This document shows positions 1,689 through 19,460 of a stretch of DNA of 20,528 nt, in pieces (position 1 is the first letter of the stretch; the number at the start of each line of letters is the position of its first letter). Source of the stretch: a virus (Duplodnaviria; Heunggongvirae; Uroviricota; Caudoviricetes); IMG/VR virus record IMGVR_UViG_2778261537_000015, positions 1-20,528 of that record. The stretch is one strand, 5' to 3'. The translations under genes and the position numbers were made by a program. The notes beneath the pieces are model-generated. The model searched no databases. It saw nothing but the letters and a program-made list of their open reading frames with translations, and had not been told where the DNA came from.

Positions 1689-1703
1689 TGGTGTCCCCTG
1701 CAG
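1689..1703. repeat. attR core: a displaced copy of the argW 3' end (15 bp)
   Basis: Exact 15-bp match to 19446..19460. The flanking bases differ on both sides. Confidence 0.8.
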
Positions 1704-1760
1704 ACATCTACTTGAGGCGGCAGGGGATTGATTGGAATGGTATTTTTTGGATGTGAAAAA

Positions 1761-1783
1761 TATTTTACCCGCTATTTTACCCA
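1761..1783. promoter_or_regulatory. Two direct repeats of TATTTTACCC, candidate integrase arm-type or RDF binding sites in attR
   Basis: TATTTTACCC occurs at 1761..1770 and 1774..1783. The same 8-mer, TTTTACCC/GGGTAAAA, occurs four times at the other end (19285..19329) upstream of the integrase. KplE1 att regions are known to carry multiple IntS arm sites and TorI sites. Confidence 0.45.
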
Positions 1784-1977
1784 TTGGCGCGGCTTAAGAG
1801 CTTATTTTTGAATTCACAATGGTCACGATATAACCATCTTGCTCGCCCGTGGATAACTTTGGCTTTAGGCAGGTCTCCGGACTTAATCCGGTCATAGATG
1901 AAGGTTTTACCGAAGCCAGTATCGGCCATGATGAATTTCAAATCAACCAGTGAATCAGGTTGTAGTTCGTGTTGCAT
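1777..1977 (-). CDS. torI: TorI/AlpA-family excisionase (recombination directionality factor), 66 aa
   Basis: I recognise the sequence MQHELQPDSLVDLKFIMADTGFGKTFIYDRIKSGDLPKAKVIHGRARWLYRDHCEFKN as the KplE1 prophage TorI (AlpA/winged-helix family, 66 aa). A GGAG RBS lies 9 nt upstream. The gene sits at the end of the element opposite the integrase, as in KplE1. Confidence 0.85.
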   Translation of the reverse strand: MQHELQPDSLVDLKFIMADTGFGKTFIYDRIKSGDLPKAKVIHGRARWLYRDHCEFKNKLLSRANG

Positions 1978-1996
1978 GAGTGCTATCTCCGAATAG

Positions 1997-2012
1997 GGAA
2001 TCGAACCTGCAA
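1997..2012. repeat. Second tRNA-derived fragment (GGAATCGAACCTGCAA), identical to the argW T-arm region at 19461..19476
   Basis: This is a 16-bp exact match to the segment of the tRNA immediately adjacent to the att core. It lies about 290 bp inside the element, with torI between it and the 15-bp core. A chance 16-mer match is very unlikely in 20 kb. Confidence 0.6.
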
Positions 2013-2022
2013 ATCAGGCAAT

Positions 2023-2046
2023 AAAAAACCGCCATCAGGCGTTTTT
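2023..2046. terminator. Rho-independent, bidirectional terminator (AAAAAACCGCC-ATCA-GGCGTTTTT)
   Basis: A GC stem (CGCC/GGCG) is flanked by an A-run and a T-run. It lies at the end of the minus-strand early-left operon. The stop codon of the small ORF at 2035..2202 falls in the loop. Confidence 0.6.
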
Positions 2047-2202
2047 GTGTTCTTTCAGTTCTTCAATTCGAATATTGGTTACGTCTGCATGTGCTATCTG
2101 CGCCCATATCATCCAGTGGTTATAGCAGTCGTTGATGTCCTCTGCTTCGATAACTCTGTTGAATGGTTCTCCATTCCATTCACCTGTGACTCGGAAGTGC
2201 AT
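2035..2202 (-). CDS. Small hypothetical protein, 55 aa, not in the ORF track (MHFRVTGEWNGEPFNRVIEAEDINDCYNHWMIWAQIAHADVTNIRIEELKEHKNA)
   Basis: ATG with a GGAG RBS 7 nt upstream, and a TGA stop inside the terminator loop. It sits in the same position as the small ypdJ-type ORF next to torI in KplE1, but similarity is not established. Confidence 0.35.
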   Translation of the reverse strand: MHFRVTGEWNGEPFNRVIEAEDINDCYNHWMIWAQIAHADVTNIRIEELKEHKNA

Positions 2203-16744: not shown

Positions 16745-17608
16745 ATGAATCGTTCTGACTCACCTAAAAAACAACCTAAGCCATTTGGAGTTAATGGACA
16801 GAGAGGGGTAATATTGCCAACCACCCCTGCAGGTGATAACTCAGCATCGTATGAACAGGGGTTTCCTCCAATAACAATGATCCTGAAATCTGCTGGCGGT
16901 TTGCCGCCAAAAGGCCAGGATATGAACCAAATTTTATACGAACTTTCGGCTCTTGGTAGATGGTCGAGCACAGGGGCGCTGAATACTTTTGATTCTGAAT
17001 TTGCTTCGGAGATTTCTGGATATCCGTCAGGGGCGATGCTCATCTCGGACGATGGGGAAAGAATATTCATTAACACAACAGAAGGAAATCTATCTGATCC
17101 AAACAGCAATGGTGCCGGGTGGAAAGATGTTCTTTCATACCTTGGTTTGGGAGAAACGATAAATAAAGCCTCCGGAGCTATGCAGAAATCGGCTAATGGA
17201 GCTGATATTTCTGATGTATCAGCCTTCCGAAATGCGCTCCAGTTAGGGACCGCTGCAACACGAGATGTTGGTGCCGGGTTAATTAATGGCATTCCGGACA
17301 TGTCCTCATTCCGTGGTTCATTAGCCGGAACTGGTTACATTAAAATCCCCATTATCGGTGCCGGAGGCGGTGCGCAAACCATTGTCATTCAGTGGGGAGT
17401 GCATTCAACTCCCCCTGGCAGTAATGCTGCCTACAATCTGGCTGTAGCATTTCCTAACTCGATACTCTGGGCTACCGGGGGACGCGGTGCCCCTGGGTCA
17501 AATGCATCGATGAATGTCGGTCCAGAAGGGACTCAACAAATTAGAATTCAGAACTATGCACCCAGCGGCCCTAATGAAAACTGCTTCTGGATTGCGATTG
17601 GTTATTGA
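16745..17608 (+). CDS. Short tail fibre protein (receptor-binding), 287 aa
   Basis: Conserved fibre N-terminus (ILPTTPAGDNSASYEQGFPPITMILKSAGGLPPKGQDMNQILYELS). The C-terminal half is Gly-rich and likely variable. A tail fibre assembly chaperone gene follows. Confidence 0.75.
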   Translation: MNRSDSPKKQPKPFGVNGQRGVILPTTPAGDNSASYEQGFPPITMILKSAGGLPPKGQDMNQILYELSALGRWSSTGALNTFDSEFASEISGYPSGAMLISDDGERIFINTTEGNLSDPNSNGAGWKDVLSYLGLGETINKASGAMQKSANGADISDVSAFRNALQLGTAATRDVGAGLINGIPDMSSFRGSLAGTGYIKIPIIGAGGGAQTIVIQWGVHSTPPGSNAAYNLAVAFPNSILWATGGRGAPGSNASMNVGPEGTQQIRIQNYAPSGPNENCFWIAIGY

Positions 17609-17619
17609 GGGGGATAAAG

Positions 17620-18039
17620 ATGAAAAATGTTTATAAGTTTCATGATGGCTTATTTTACCCACCGGACCTGAATTATGAGTCTATTCCAGATAGTGCGATA
17701 GAAGTATCGAGCGAGGAGTATATAAAAGCCATGAGCCGCGCACCTGGAAGCACTTTTACGGTCAATGATGCTGGTGTTGTCACTATTATCCCGGCACCAG
17801 AGCCTACGCAGGAGCAACGTATCGCTCAGGCTGAGGTGCATAAACAATTCTTGCTGGATGAAGCTACGCAAAGGATTACTATCTGGCAAACCAAGCTTCT
17901 CATGGGGCGTAAGTTAACGGATGATGAATCAGCCAGCCTTAATGCCTGGATGGACTATATTGACGAAGTAGCGAAGACTAAAGCCGTCACTGCACCCGAT
18001 ATCGTCTGGCCTACGCCTCCGGGGGAGCAGGCCAATTGA
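17620..18039 (+). CDS. Tail fibre assembly chaperone (Tfa; Mu U / P2 G-like), 139 aa
   Basis: ATG at 17620 with a GAGGGGGA RBS. The N-terminus, KNVYKF.DGLFYPP, and the C-terminal WPTPP motif are typical of Tfa proteins. Confidence 0.75.
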   Translation: MKNVYKFHDGLFYPPDLNYESIPDSAIEVSSEEYIKAMSRAPGSTFTVNDAGVVTIIPAPEPTQEQRIAQAEVHKQFLLDEATQRITIWQTKLLMGRKLTDDESASLNAWMDYIDEVAKTKAVTAPDIVWPTPPGEQAN

Positions 18040-18118
18040 TATCCGGCGCACAGGACAAAACTGATACACACAAAGCTTTGCACTGGATTGCAAGGCTTTG
18101 TGCTATTCGATAGTTGTT

Positions 18119-18141
18119 AAGGTGGATCACTCCACCTTTTC
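18119..18141. terminator. Bidirectional terminator (AGGTGGA-TCAC-TCCACCT plus TTTT) shared by the tail operon and intS
   Basis: A 7-bp GC-rich stem with a T-run lies downstream on the plus strand and an A-rich stretch lies downstream on the minus strand. The intS TGA stop lies in the loop. Confidence 0.55.
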
Positions 18142-19284
18142 ATCAAGCCAATCCGCCCACCACTGCATCATTTCTCTGCGCTTATCTAGATACTGAGCAT
18201 GGTTGTAAATCCCACGCACAGATCCGCCGTTGGCATGTGCCAGTTGCACTTCAATGGCGTCGGCAGGCCATTCGTGCTCGTTCATAATCGTGCTGAATTC
18301 ATGCCTGAATCCGTGACCGCTTTCCAGCCCCTCATAGCCGATTTGTTTGATCACAAGTAGCACCGCGTTCTCGCAGATTGGTTTCTTCTTATCGTTGCGC
18401 CCGGCAAAAACAAATTCTGATACTGGTTTAGTGATGGAGCTTAGCGTAGTGAGAAGTTCAACCACCTGGTCTGACATCGGGACCACATGAATTTTGCGTC
18501 CCTTCATCACACTGGCGTCGATGGTGATAATCCTGTTTTCAAAATCGACGTTCTTCCATAGCATGGAGCGAAGCTCTTTCGTTCTTAGGGCTGTGTAGCG
18601 TAAAACTTTGGTCGCAATGAGCGATACGATACTTCCTGAAAATGTTGCCAGTGCTTTGTTGAATGCAGGGATCTGGTCTGCTGGAAGAAACGGGAAGTTC
18701 TTCTTGCGGTATCCTTTCATGGCGTCTGCAAGGTCAGGTGCCGGGTTATATTTAGCCCTGCCGGTGACAATAGCGTAACGGAAAACCTCGCCGCATCTTC
18801 TGCGGGCTTTGTTGGCTCGCTCCATTGCACCGCGGTCTTCAAATCTGCGGATTACTTCCTGCAGTTGCATCGGCTCAATATCCTGAATTTCAAGGCTGCC
18901 GATGATAGGTAAAATGTCTTCATCAAACATTTTTGCAAGTTCATTTGCATAGCCTACTGACCAGACTTGCTTCTTGTGCTCGTACCATTCCTTGTAAATC
19001 GCACTAAAGGAATTGTTGTTAGACGAAGCCTTTTTCGCCTTTACCGGATCGATGCCAACCGAGATGTCTTTCCTCGCAGTCCATGCTTTATCCCTTGCCT
19101 CCTGCAAAGTCATAAGCGGATATTTTCCGACGGTCAGGATTTTCTCCTTACCGCCAATCTTGTAGCGAAGCTGCCATACCTTTTTCCCTGACACAGGGAC
19201 ATAAAGGTACAGGCCATTACCATCGAGAAGGCGGTATGGTTTTTCTTTCGGCTTTGCTGCTTCAATCTGCTTAACGGTGAGCAT
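18127..19284 (-). CDS. intS: Tyrosine integrase IntS (KplE1/CPS-53 family), 385 aa
   Basis: The N-terminus MLTVKQIEAAKPKEKPYRLLDGNGLYLYVPVSGKKVWQLRYKIGGKEKIL matches what I recall of K-12 IntS. The C-terminal catalytic region has R...HGFRH...Y. The gene is adjacent to the argW tRNA 3' end. An alternative GTG start lies at 19320. Confidence 0.85.
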   Translation of the reverse strand: MLTVKQIEAAKPKEKPYRLLDGNGLYLYVPVSGKKVWQLRYKIGGKEKILTVGKYPLMTLQEARDKAWTARKDISVGIDPVKAKKASSNNNSFSAIYKEWYEHKKQVWSVGYANELAKMFDEDILPIIGSLEIQDIEPMQLQEVIRRFEDRGAMERANKARRRCGEVFRYAIVTGRAKYNPAPDLADAMKGYRKKNFPFLPADQIPAFNKALATFSGSIVSLIATKVLRYTALRTKELRSMLWKNVDFENRIITIDASVMKGRKIHVVPMSDQVVELLTTLSSITKPVSEFVFAGRNDKKKPICENAVLLVIKQIGYEGLESGHGFRHEFSTIMNEHEWPADAIEVQLAHANGGSVRGIYNHAQYLDKRREMMQWWADWLDEKVE

Positions 19285-19329
19285 GGGTAAAAATCCGATG
19301 GGTAAAATTATTTTACCCACTTTTTACCC
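19285..19329. promoter_or_regulatory. intS upstream region with four TTTTACCC/GGGTAAAA motifs, including a perfect palindrome GGGTAAAAT-T-ATTTTACCC (19300..19318). These are candidate IntS arm or TorI sites overlapping the intS promoter.
   Basis: The motifs lie at 19285..19292, 19300..19308, 19310..19318 and 19322..19329. The same motif occurs twice at the other end of the element. The KplE1 intS promoter is known to overlap attL and to be repressed by IntS and TorI. Confidence 0.45.
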
Positions 19330-19445
19330 GTCATGGAGTGCGGCTGTCAACGATCTGACGCGAACCATTACGAACTGTGAATCTACGGAAGGCTTGATAT
19401 TCAGGGGATTTTGCGGACTGCTACGGATGGGAGCGAACTGATAAA

Positions 19446-19460
19446 TGGTGTCCCCTGCAG
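19446..19460. repeat. attL core, which is the 3' terminal 15 nt of argW
   Basis: Exact repeat of 1689..1703. Confidence 0.8.

Follow-up and report, generated by a model that had tools for sequence, protein, structure and literature searches.

The window, that is the whole stretch of 20,528 nucleotides analysed here, carries at argW an integrated element with genes for a contractile tail, and the question is whether such a locus is a dead remnant, a source of tailocin-like particles or a tail donor for other phages. The element is very probably a defective prophage that arose through one recent internal deletion of about 26 kb, a size estimated via the TW10590 prophage minus two IS3 copies and not from the exact parent.

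Exact 15-bp direct repeats derived from argW bound the 17,757-bp element (1689-19460). The borders and the recombination module comprise the following features.

1689-1703: att core copy on the torI side (attR in KplE1 naming), TGGTGTCCCCTGCAG, an exact repeat of the argW 3' end
1762-1782, + strand: two direct predicted IntS arm-type sites (ATTTTACCC x2) of the torI-side arm (motif scan)
1777-1977, - strand: torI, excisionase (recombination directionality factor) and TorR inhibitor; matches phrog_66, excisionase
18127-19284, - strand: intS, tyrosine integrase of 385 aa, ATG at 19284; Pfam Arm-DNA-bind_3, Phage_int_M and Phage_integrase
19285-19329: predicted IntS arm-site array (attL in KplE1 naming) overlapping the intS promoter region; four ATTTTACCC-type sites at 19285(-), 19300(-), 19310(+) and 19321(+)
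19446-19460: second att core copy, TGGTGTCCCCTGCAG, the 3'-terminal 15 nt of argW (repeat family D3)
19446-19520, - strand: argW, tRNA-Arg(CCT) (ARAGORN call)

The torI-side core aligns with the K-12 KplE1 core and with the attP core of phage HF4s. A scan for the arm-type motif ATTTTACCC gave 16 matches where 5.6 were expected; six of them lie together in the att arms (at 1762, 1774, 19285, 19300, 19310 and 19321). The sites of the torI-side arm are invariant across K-12, HF4s and TW10590, the array at 19285-19329 is nearly identical to K-12 attL, and both att regions are nearly identical to those of KplE1 (arms 96-97%, same arm-type site arrays) and to HF4s attP. TAAA-containing IntS arm sites and the overlap of KplE1 attL with PintS have been described (PMC2951348). 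TorI is identical to its K-12 counterpart (66/66 aa, 100%) and IntS nearly so (380/385 aa, 98.7%). In vivo excision of the KplE1 module is established, and HK620, Sf6, CUS-3 and other prophages have this module too (PMC2951348); the integration and excision module of the window, near-identical to this experimentally excisable one, still looks functional. The KplE1-type module at argW with its cores and arm arrays was thus correctly recognised by the first-pass annotation.

The tail module has 15 genes, from the terminator to the fibre chaperone, all of them open (3725-18039). They are distributed in two blocks, 3725-8567 (+ strand, terminator to tape measure) and 11838-18039 (+ strand, 271-aa protein to fibre assembly chaperone; Pfam, PHROGs).

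3725-4240, + strand: tail terminator (Pfam Phage_tail_terminator_9)
4237-5727, + strand: sheath (Pfam DUF3383; E217 gp31 match in PDB)
5739-6173, + strand: tube (Pfam E217_Gp32)
6173-6580, + strand: assembly chaperone (Pfam Phage_TAC_15)
6592-6795, + strand: 67-aa ORF
6792-8567, + strand: tape measure protein (TMP)
from 11838, + strand: 271-aa Dit-like baseplate protein (Pfam/PHROGs)
before 13819, + strand: Pam3_gp18 plug, then hub (317/293 aa; Pfam/PHROGs)
13819-14511, + strand: E217 gp43-like spike (PDB match)
14508-14867, + strand: sheath initiator (Sheath_initiator call)
14864-16093, + strand: baseplate J (Pfam/PHROGs)
16104-16742, + strand: DUF2612 protein (Pfam/PHROGs)
16745-17608, + strand: tail fibre (Pfam/PHROGs)
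17620-18039, + strand: fibre assembly chaperone (Pfam/PHROGs)

Compared with intact prophages, the proteins of the first block are full length, gap-free and 98.5-100% identical in amino acid sequence; those from the 271-aa protein through baseplate J are 97-100% identical and the DUF2612 protein 87-89%, also full length and without gaps. For the fibre C-terminus and the chaperone of the fibre no end-to-end comparison is possible, these being mosaic alleles unlike those of the relatives. Outside these mosaic parts no frameshift or stop is seen against the intact homologues, and the gene set looks intact, as had been proposed. It had also been described as Mu-like, an assignment that has to be replaced: on its DUF3383 (E217 gp31) sheath, E217_Gp32 tube, Pam3_gp18 plug, gp43-like spike and DUF2612 protein, the tail belongs to the PB1/E217/Pam3 families. 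The nearest phages are the isolated Edwardsiella myoviruses Edno5 and GF-2 (sheath 73-75% aa identical). Pseudomonas E217/PB1 and cyanophage Pam3, more distant, have the same tail families; the window sheath and spike match solved E217 structures, although they resemble E217 itself only remotely (E about 1e-17). Unlike the element, these are all complete isolated phages without a KplE1 module.

The coupling of gene starts is not continuous throughout the tail genes, as first thought, because a 3,270-bp non-tail insert (8568-11837) separates the TMP gene from the baseplate genes.

8576-9034, - strand: 152-aa secreted-looking orphan with a signal-like start, MKSRFFTIAIFSSVLLSLAAYA
9243-10211, + strand: P63C-domain protein (P63C PF10546, phrog_2384)
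10216-10239 and 11799-11818: terminator-like hairpins flanking the immI-like module (consensus scan)
10227-10547, - strand: Mnt/Arc-family repressor (Pfam Arc; PHROGs Arc-like repressor)
10581-10656: divergent promoter-like pair (consensus scan)
10655-10828, + strand: Arc-like 57-aa ORF (Pfam/PHROGs)
10818-11759, + strand: antirepressor Ant (Pfam P22_AR_N; PHROGs anti-repressor Ant)

The orphan has no family match in Pfam, PHROG or PADLOC, and the accessory slot (8576-10211) is occupied by other genes in relatives. The segment 10227-11759, which the first reading had missed, resembles the P22 immI module (mnt-Pmnt/Pant-arc-ant): a divergent Arc/Mnt repressor faces an Arc-like gene with a P22_AR_N antirepressor gene behind it, the promoter-like pair between the divergent genes includes the best promoter match of the whole element (10/12, 10628-10656), and the module is embedded in a late operon. 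In P22 it sits upstream of a podovirus tailspike gene, whereas in the window the predicted module lies between myovirus tape measure and baseplate genes. Regulatory genes are therefore not wholly absent from the element, since the insert carries Arc/Mnt-type repressors and an antirepressor.

Pfam and PHROGs searches of all ORFs, antisense ones included, found none of the families for capsid, portal, terminase, holin/endolysin, replication proteins or CI/Cro, in agreement with the first-pass annotation; the weakly assigned ORF 3725-4240 turned out to be the tail terminator. The boundary at which these modules are missing is marked by two truncated genes.

2035-3555, - strand: early-left (PL operon) remnant with a 55-aa ORF, an ASCH-like 94-aa ORF, a DUF4752 94-aa ORF and a 239-aa Ead/Ea22+DUF551 ORF (PHROGs and Pfam)
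3552-3641, - strand: 3' stub of a 157-aa early-left gene that the deletion truncated to its last 29 codons, translation MQSSGSLTFGYCYISLNEFAAELRKGGNQ and stop
3640-3642: deletion joint, overlap of at most 2-3 bp, where homology ends on both sides
3642-3728, + strand: 3' stub of the gene (123/125 aa) preceding the tail terminator gene in intact prophages, reduced to its last 28 codons, translation NGEQWLVVEPIELWPDWCRLIAVLQVSP and stop

The early-left remnant is 96.8% identical in nucleotide sequence to the HF4s early-left region. The first stub matches residues 129-157 of the ZH063 homologue (L005 4306..4779) and the second is identical to the C-terminus of the 123-aa protein of L021. Homology on the right to all full-length relatives, among them three full prophages, begins exactly at 3641 (L001, L002, L003 and L021), while homology on the left to the intact early-left regions of L005 and L006 stops at 3642. 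A deletion joint ahead of the first tail gene had been suspected; it is real, and the alignments refine its position to 3641 +/-1, within the 169-bp gap annotated as intergenic. It is a product of illegitimate recombination.

The same type of prophage is found in full length at the same argW site in TW10590 (46,470 bp core-to-core), in the order cscB-attL-torI...intS-argW-yfdC, sharing with the element the torI end, the intS end, the att cores and the chromosomal site. Besides the tail block seen in the element, it has cI/cro, replication genes, nin, Q, holin, GH24 lysin, terS/terL, portal and capsid; its structural module recurs in WS4437A-1 and Z1323CEC0013. In these full-length lambdoid myovirus prophages (about 44-46 kb) the tail block has 94-98% nucleotide identity to that of the element and the same gene order, with a variable immI/accessory slot between the TMP and baseplate genes. 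They differ from the element in keeping cI/cro, replication, nin, Q, holin/lysin/Rz, terminase, portal, capsid and connectors, all of which are gone from the window. In complete genomes the sheath gene is present at 27 places and so is the capsid gene, in 20 genomes each (27:27 co-occurrence), and 10/10 sampled contigs with an identical terminator protein retain the upstream head genes: head and tail genes normally travel together. Some genomes, such as CP148507 (L014, L015), hold two copies of this prophage family.

The 3641 joint occurs in 0 of 5,426 complete E. coli genomes and in no GTDB representative genome; it was found only in the source draft GCA_002511735.1 and in one read-set assembly. 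Over 4.2 kb, L021, a relative without the deletion, shows 99.9% identity; the differences are 3 synonymous changes plus 1 in the stub. The element, first regarded as a distinct tail-only integrative element and a variant of CPS-53, is a one-off, lineage-specific deletion derivative of a common lambdoid myovirus prophage, found full length (46.5 kb) at argW in TW10590, and not a class of element.

The parent would have been a lambdoid temperate myovirus integrated in the argW 3' end. Alongside an int-att-xis module and early-left genes of HK620/Sf6/KplE1 type, it would have carried a lambda-like region for control, replication, nin, Q and lysis, and a head and contractile tail of PB1/E217 type. 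Illegitimate recombination would have linked a position within an early-left gene to one lying 84 bp ahead of the tail-terminator gene. Lost with the intervening DNA would have been the remainder of the PL operon together with N, cI/cro and the replication genes, the nin region, Q and PR'/qut, the genes for holin, endolysin and Rz, and those for terminase, portal, scaffold, capsid and head-tail connectors. The tail genes would be intact because the deletion is recent, not because of selection. Probably still functional are intS, which regulates itself, the Mnt/Arc/Ant switch of immI type and both accessory genes; given transcription of torI, a non-replicating circle could be excised by IntS and TorI.

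The tail genes are probably largely silent. The one driver known for them is transcription from PR' under Q antitermination, which works in cis and has been lost; the consensus scan, which reports motif matches only, gave no promoter-like + strand site upstream of 3725 and the sheath operon; and the terminator-like sites at 10216 and 11799 that interrupt the cluster would stop an unmodified polymerase. Q antitermination is cis-acting in established lambda biology, and a co-resident phage therefore cannot turn the cluster on. No + strand terminator is predicted between cscB (ends 1248) and 3725, and sucrose-induced read-through from cscB into the tail operon may occur; Rho is expected to halt it.

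These features bear on the other two fates proposed at first. The element might supply tails or fibres in trans to heads of related phages, or serve as a recombination reservoir for incoming ones. Two family copies do coexist in some genomes, and the mosaic fibre C-terminus and chaperone make recombination with an incoming relative (94-98% nucleotide identity) physically plausible. Supply in trans requires expression, however, and meets the promoter, Q and terminator objections, while a reservoir role is a passive trait of any prophage remnant and not a function of the element; a tail donor is thus very unlikely.

A nascent or functional R-type tailocin, with tails expressed, assembled, released for instance by the lysis genes of another prophage and killing E. 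coli via their own fibre, is slightly less probable still. Terminator, sheath, tube, chaperone, TMP, hub, plug, spike, sheath initiator, wedge J, DUF2612 protein, fibre and fibre chaperone are all intact, and the head genes are missing as the definition of tailocins demands (PMC12090994). The element has in common with R-pyocins, carotovoricin and similar tailocins a chromosomal cluster of contractile-tail genes without head genes. Yet the loci of tailocins retain their lysis cassette as well as dedicated regulators that are usually SOS-linked, and are conserved across lineages (PMC12090994), whereas the element has no lysis cassette, Q, late promoter/qut or SOS-responsive regulator, is still bounded by int, xis and att, and its joint is limited to one lineage, head-less copies being not recurrent in complete genomes. 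The loss of Q, PR'/qut and lysis genes, the missing promoter-like site, the terminators and the single lineage clearly favour the dead remnant among the three fates that the first-pass annotation had left undecided; the balance lies heavily with a silent prophage in recent decay over a tailocin or a tail donor.

That the joint is a chimeric contig join is very improbable: although the sequence comes from a draft assembly (contig NMHQ01000035.1, 49 kb) and each side is repeated phage sequence common in E. coli, a separately assembled Logan contig (SRR3987536), which may be of the same strain, crosses the joint with 100% identity, the att cores match, the chromosomal flank genes are those of TW10590, and the 2-bp overlap offers no shared repeat to mislead an assembler.

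The decayed prophage and K-12 KplE1/CPS-53 share the argW 3'-end site, the core sequence and the arrangement with intS adjoining argW and torI at the far end, and both are defective prophages that retain a complete recombination module. No nucleotide homology to KplE1 was found between 2028 and 18053, and the cargo is indeed unlike, as had been noted: yfdGHI (gtr O-antigen glucosylation), tfaS/yfdK-L remnants and yfdM-T in the 10.2 kb of K-12, against the early-left remnant, the complete E217-type tail module and immI in the 17.8 kb of the window. They arose by independent decay of different phages with this module in common, and neither is a variant of the other. The att core measures 15 bp here versus 16 bp in K-12 because the bacterial flank is cscB and not dsdC.

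The element adds a case to a familiar class, that of defective prophages with a KplE1-type recombination module. It is bounded by a 15-bp exact repeat, TGGTGTCCCCTGCAG on the plus strand (repeat family D3), found at 1689-1703 and again as the final 15 nt of argW at 19446; these att cores delimit an element of 17,757 bp in window coordinates. Insertion at the argW 3' end, with the core duplicated, is the organization of KplE1 (CPS-53), the cryptic K-12 prophage at the same tRNA gene, whose core is 16 nt long (PMC2951348) and reads CTGCAGGGGACACCAT in K-12. A difference at the sixteenth base is confined to the bacterial flank, and the repeated core is 15 bp instead of 16 because the bacterial side is csc here and dsdC in K-12. 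The left flank belongs to the csc sucrose-utilisation regulon, located between dsdA and argW; strain TW10590, which carries a full-size prophage of the same type at argW, has cscA, cscK and cscR further left (L017 1-8000). Contig NMHQ01000035.1 of a draft E. coli genome (GCA_002511735.1) matches the window at 100% identity. The recombination genes and flanking features are the following.

1-1248: cscB, sucrose permease, left flank of the element
1777-1977, minus strand: torI, 66-aa ORF, 66/66 identity to K-12 TorI, 73 bp from the att core
18127-19284, minus strand: intS integrase, 380/385 identity to K-12 IntS, with Pfam domains Arm-DNA-bind_3, Phage_int_M and Phage_integrase
19446-19520, minus strand: argW, tRNA-Arg (CCT), identified by ARAGORN as the single tRNA in the window
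right flank of the element: yfdC

The start of intS at 19284 adjoins an array of arm sites (19285-19329). The integrase features an arm-binding amino-terminal domain, is transcribed inwards and has a putative promoter overlapping attL; in the KplE1 module the arm-type P' sites contain TAAA and attL overlaps the intS promoter (PMC2951348). TorI, the recombination directionality factor (RDF), is encoded at the prophage end opposite intS. The arm-type motif ATTTTACCC is present in 16 copies in the window, compared to 5.6 expected and to 0 of 100 shuffles that reached this number. Six copies are in the arms, at 1762 and 1774 on the torI side and at 19285, 19300, 19310 and 19321 on the int side, and the arm-type sites of both arms are conserved with K-12 and with the P22-like phage HF4s. 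The att arms have 96.5% and 97.1% identity to those of KplE1 and are near-identical to HF4s attP. The first-pass annotation had described a functional-looking recombination set, and this description is borne out by the match of TorI and IntS, att cores and arm arrays to KplE1. Excision of KplE1 is known to occur in vivo (PMC2951348), and near-identity to this excisable prophage suggests, by analogy, that the element would be competent for excision by IntS and TorI, together with IHF. The KplE1 module is common to HK620, Sf6, CUS-3 and several E. coli prophages (PMC2951348); different cargo carried on one such module in different hosts is already known.

A 16-bp segment of the argW T-arm (19460-19475), GGAATCGAACCTGCAA, has an exact second copy at 1997-2012, just upstream of the torI start. 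The segment directly adjoins the 15-bp att core in the tRNA, whose 30-nt 3' portion thus looks split in the phage, the att core and the T-arm copy being separated by 293 bp that include torI. K-12 KplE1, HF4s and TW10590 all have the copy unchanged, and a rough estimate gives ~0.05 chance matches of this kind expected in the window. It may be the relic of a longer ancestral attP, identical to the tRNA, that was interrupted by insertion of the RDF gene.

The deletion that shaped the element can be placed at a single position. Homology to the window is lost exactly at 3641 in three full-length prophages (L001, L002 and L003) and in an undeleted contig 99.9% identical to it (L021), and stops at 3642 in two intact early-left regions (L005, from strain ZH063, and L006). 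On the minus strand, 3641-3552 codes for MQSSGSLTFGYCYISLNEFAAELRKGGNQ followed by a stop, the final 29 residues of a 157-aa gene found upstream of ead/Ea22 in ZH063. On the plus strand, 3642-3728 codes for the final 28 residues of a 123/125-aa gene that precedes the tail terminator gene in intact prophages. The 169-bp gap, in which the first-pass annotation had correctly suspected a deletion joint, therefore consists of the stubs of two genes, joined by illegitimate recombination with an overlap of at most 2-3 bp, and the homology ends and the stubs locate the joint at 3641. A 37-mer tag for it is CGAACCGCTCGACTGCATAACGGGGAGCAATGGCTTG. None of 5,426 complete E. coli genomes and none of the GTDB species representatives has the joint; it turned up only in the source assembly and the Logan read-set contig SRR3987536 (100% identity), which possibly comes from the same strain. 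The undeleted contig L021 differs from the window at 4 of 4,238 positions: the tube gene accounts for three, all synonymous, and the stub for the fourth. The rarity of the joint, the near-identity of L021 and the retention of head genes elsewhere indicate a single, recent, lineage-specific deletion. Intact tail genes are predicted by such a recent event, and their intactness is thus no evidence of selection.

The segment lost can be read from the prophage of TW10590, inserted at the same chromosomal site (cscB-att-torI ... intS-argW-yfdC) and spanning 46,470 bp from core to core, two IS3 copies included. Its early-left genes are followed by those for a LexA-family repressor, cro and cII, by replication and nin genes, and by Q. 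Then come the holin, GH24 lysin and Rz genes, terS and terL, and the genes coding the DUF1073 portal, a Mu-F-like protein, a DUF2213 protein, the cement protein and the major capsid protein; connector genes and the same tail block complete the order, which ends at intS. Without its IS copies this prophage has roughly 44 kb, so about 26 kb are gone from the element of the window. All plausible ORFs of the element, including weakly assigned ones and the longest antisense ones, were searched with Pfam and PHROGs and gave no family for capsid, portal, terminase or scaffold, nor for holin, endolysin, spanin, replication, Q, N or CI/Cro proteins. Head or lysis genes hidden in weak ORFs, a possibility allowed for in the first-pass annotation, were found neither in 3725-4240, 11838-12952 and 8576-9034 nor in the antisense ORFs. 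The tape measure protein (TMP) has phrog_873, labelled 'endolysin', as its top PHROG match. The match covers only the TMP portion (positions 1-561 of 1277) and Pfam detects no SLT or lysozyme domain in the TMP, showing that the label is a family-naming artefact.

The relatives of the element keep their heads. Among the 5,426 complete E. coli genomes, the family's sheath and major capsid genes each occupy 27 places in 20 genomes, and the identical terminator protein has head genes upstream in 10 of 10 contigs sampled; a recurrent tail-only class is ruled out by these equal counts and contexts. The element is not a distinct tail-only integrative element, as first proposed, but an ordinary prophage recently decayed by one deletion. 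Its parent family (L001, L002, L003 and L007-L016) has early, nin, Q and lysis genes of lambdoid kind joined to a head and contractile tail of the PB1/E217 type. One protein of the family is indexed in 1,396 blocks of an assembly collection. No close isolated phage of the family was found among 50,697 phage records, in which the best sheath match belongs to Edwardsiella phage Edno5 (74.5% identity), and megablast of the window against these records gave matches limited to the int/xis/early-left and ant parts.

The genes between the joint and intS are organized in two tail blocks separated by an insert.

3725-8567: tail block 1, coding the terminator (PF23961), DUF3383 sheath, E217_Gp32 tube, tail assembly chaperone, a 67-aa ORF and a 591-aa tape measure protein
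8576-9034, minus strand: 152-aa orphan with a signal-peptide-like amino terminus
9243-10211: P63C-domain protein
10227-10547, minus strand: Mnt/Arc-family repressor
10655-10828: Arc-like 57-aa ORF
10818-11759: P22_AR_N antirepressor (Ant)
11838-18039: tail block 2, coding in its first part a Dit-like 271-aa protein, the Pam3_gp18 plug, baseplate hub, 230-aa spike and sheath initiator, and in the remainder Baseplate_J, DUF2612, the fibre and a lambda-gpK-type fibre assembly chaperone

The tail is of the PB1/E217/Pam3 'simple baseplate' type. It has the sheath and tube of this group (Pfam E-values of 4.6e-106 for DUF3383 and 5.5e-17 for E217_Gp32) and a simple baseplate with plug, hub, gp43/gp41-like spike, sheath initiator, Baseplate_J and DUF2612 proteins. 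The sheath matches the solved E217 gp31 (PDB 8env, 8fvg) and the 230-aa spike matches E217 gp43 and phage SN gp41 in the PDB. The isolated phages with the nearest sheaths are Edwardsiella phages Edno5 and GF-2 (73-75% amino acid identity) and Vibrio phage IKEMa6-1 (66%). The tail had initially been taken as Mu-like, but all specific matches for sheath, tube, hub and plug are to E217, Pam3 or DUF3383 families. No Mu-family Pfam or PHROG model was best or significant for these four proteins when homologues of Mu gpL/gpM and gp44-48 were sought, and the generic Baseplate_J domain is all that the element shares with the Mu tail.

The tail genes had been rightly reported as complete, although the 3,270-bp insert that splits them in two blocks had been missed. 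All align end to end, without gaps or stops, with their counterparts in eight head-retaining prophages; frameshifts and stops relative to intact homologues, raised earlier as a possibility, were looked for and none was found. For the terminator, tube, 67-aa ORF, TMP, plug and sheath initiator, at least one of the eight prophages has a 100% identical counterpart. Identity is 98-99% for the sheath, chaperone, 271-aa protein, hub and spike, 97% for baseplate J and 87-89% for DUF2612, while the carboxyl terminus of the fibre and the fibre chaperone are mosaic alleles, as is usual in host-range genes. The family has two tape-measure alleles, one of 591 aa without a recognisable lytic domain (window 6792-8567, L001) and another of 604-605 aa with an SLT transglycosylase domain (L002, L007, L008 and L014 compared), only ~44% identical across their first 349 residues.

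Within the insert, the succession of Mnt/Arc repressor, Arc-like protein and Ant reproduces the layout of P22 immI, but in a myovirus, where it is embedded between the tape measure gene and those of the baseplate. A consensus scan places the best promoter-like sites of the element, which are divergent, between the two repressor genes (10581-10656), and terminator-like hairpins at 10216-10239 and 11799-11818 on the two sides of the module. An immI-like switch (10227-11818) survives in the remnant, and other lambdoid prophages in the same host might be affected by the antirepressor that it keeps. The slot between TMP and immI (window 8576-10211) is a hot spot of variable accessory genes across L003 and L007-L016, where it is occupied by an S24/HTH repressor, SocA_Panacea, DUF2513, other antirepressor alleles or other genes. 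The 152-aa orphan belongs to no family in Pfam, PHROGs or PADLOC, and PADLOC gave nothing meaningful for defence genes among the accessory ORFs.

Lambdoid late operons are transcribed from PR' by a Q-modified, terminator-resistant RNA polymerase, Q being loaded in cis at qut. Comparison with full-length prophages shows that Q, PR'/qut and the lysis genes fall inside the deleted segment. From cscB to 3725 the consensus scan gave no promoter-like site on the plus strand, and it detected intrinsic-terminator-like hairpins between the two tail blocks. The tail genes are thus likely to be essentially silent, and a co-resident phage would be unable to activate them in trans. Even if particles were assembled, the lack of a lysis cassette would prevent their release. 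Activity might persist in intS, the immI-like switch and both accessory genes, and perhaps in torI, whose natural promoter PL is deleted. A weak sigma-70-like consensus match (TAGCCA-16-TATTAT, 9/12; 3771-3744, minus strand) lies within the 5' end of the terminator gene. It faces left across the joint and by chance could drive transcription of the ead-torI remnant. If TorI were made, it would, by analogy with KplE1, act with IntS to excise the element as a non-replicating circle.

That the element serves as a donor of tails or fibres is very improbable, the regulatory and lysis parts required being missing and conservation lacking. These same absences make a functional R-type tailocin extremely improbable in spite of the head-less contractile-tail cluster, a hallmark of such particles. 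Tailocin biology includes lysis-dependent release (PMC12090994), while no ORF of the element belongs to a holin, endolysin or spanin family. The element has no Q, PrtN/PrtR-like or LexA/CI-type gene, and the confinement of its joint to the source assembly and one read set departs from vertical conservation in a lineage or species. There is an equally slender chance that it is an incipient tailocin, one deletion having left a complete, head-less and still excisable tail cluster expressed at low level by read-through, with tails freed upon lysis by a co-resident prophage. Read-through could come from sucrose-inducible cscB or from the Pant-like promoter of immI, and the lineage would then gain a killing or decoy particle before dedicated regulation evolves. 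The E. coli ST131 'tailocin' of the literature is a complete P2-like prophage unrelated to the element. An assembly chimera at the joint is hardly credible, as att cores and chromosomal flanks are coherent, no repeat is common to both sides and an independently assembled contig crosses the joint.

The decayed prophage provides a base-pair-resolved case in which one illegitimate-recombination event removes the control, lysis and head genes of a lambdoid prophage and leaves its tail genes and KplE1-type excision module untouched. Automated tools could take such snapshots of decay for tailocins. Its significance beyond annotation is slight, with a possible modest use for the parent family, the immI-like switch in a tail operon and the second argW fragment upstream of torI. 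Erosion of this prophage type is common, follows independent routes and takes each time another form: in L009 the sheath, tube, TMP and cement genes carry multiple frameshifts and there is an IS insertion, and L016 no longer has its terminase and portal genes.
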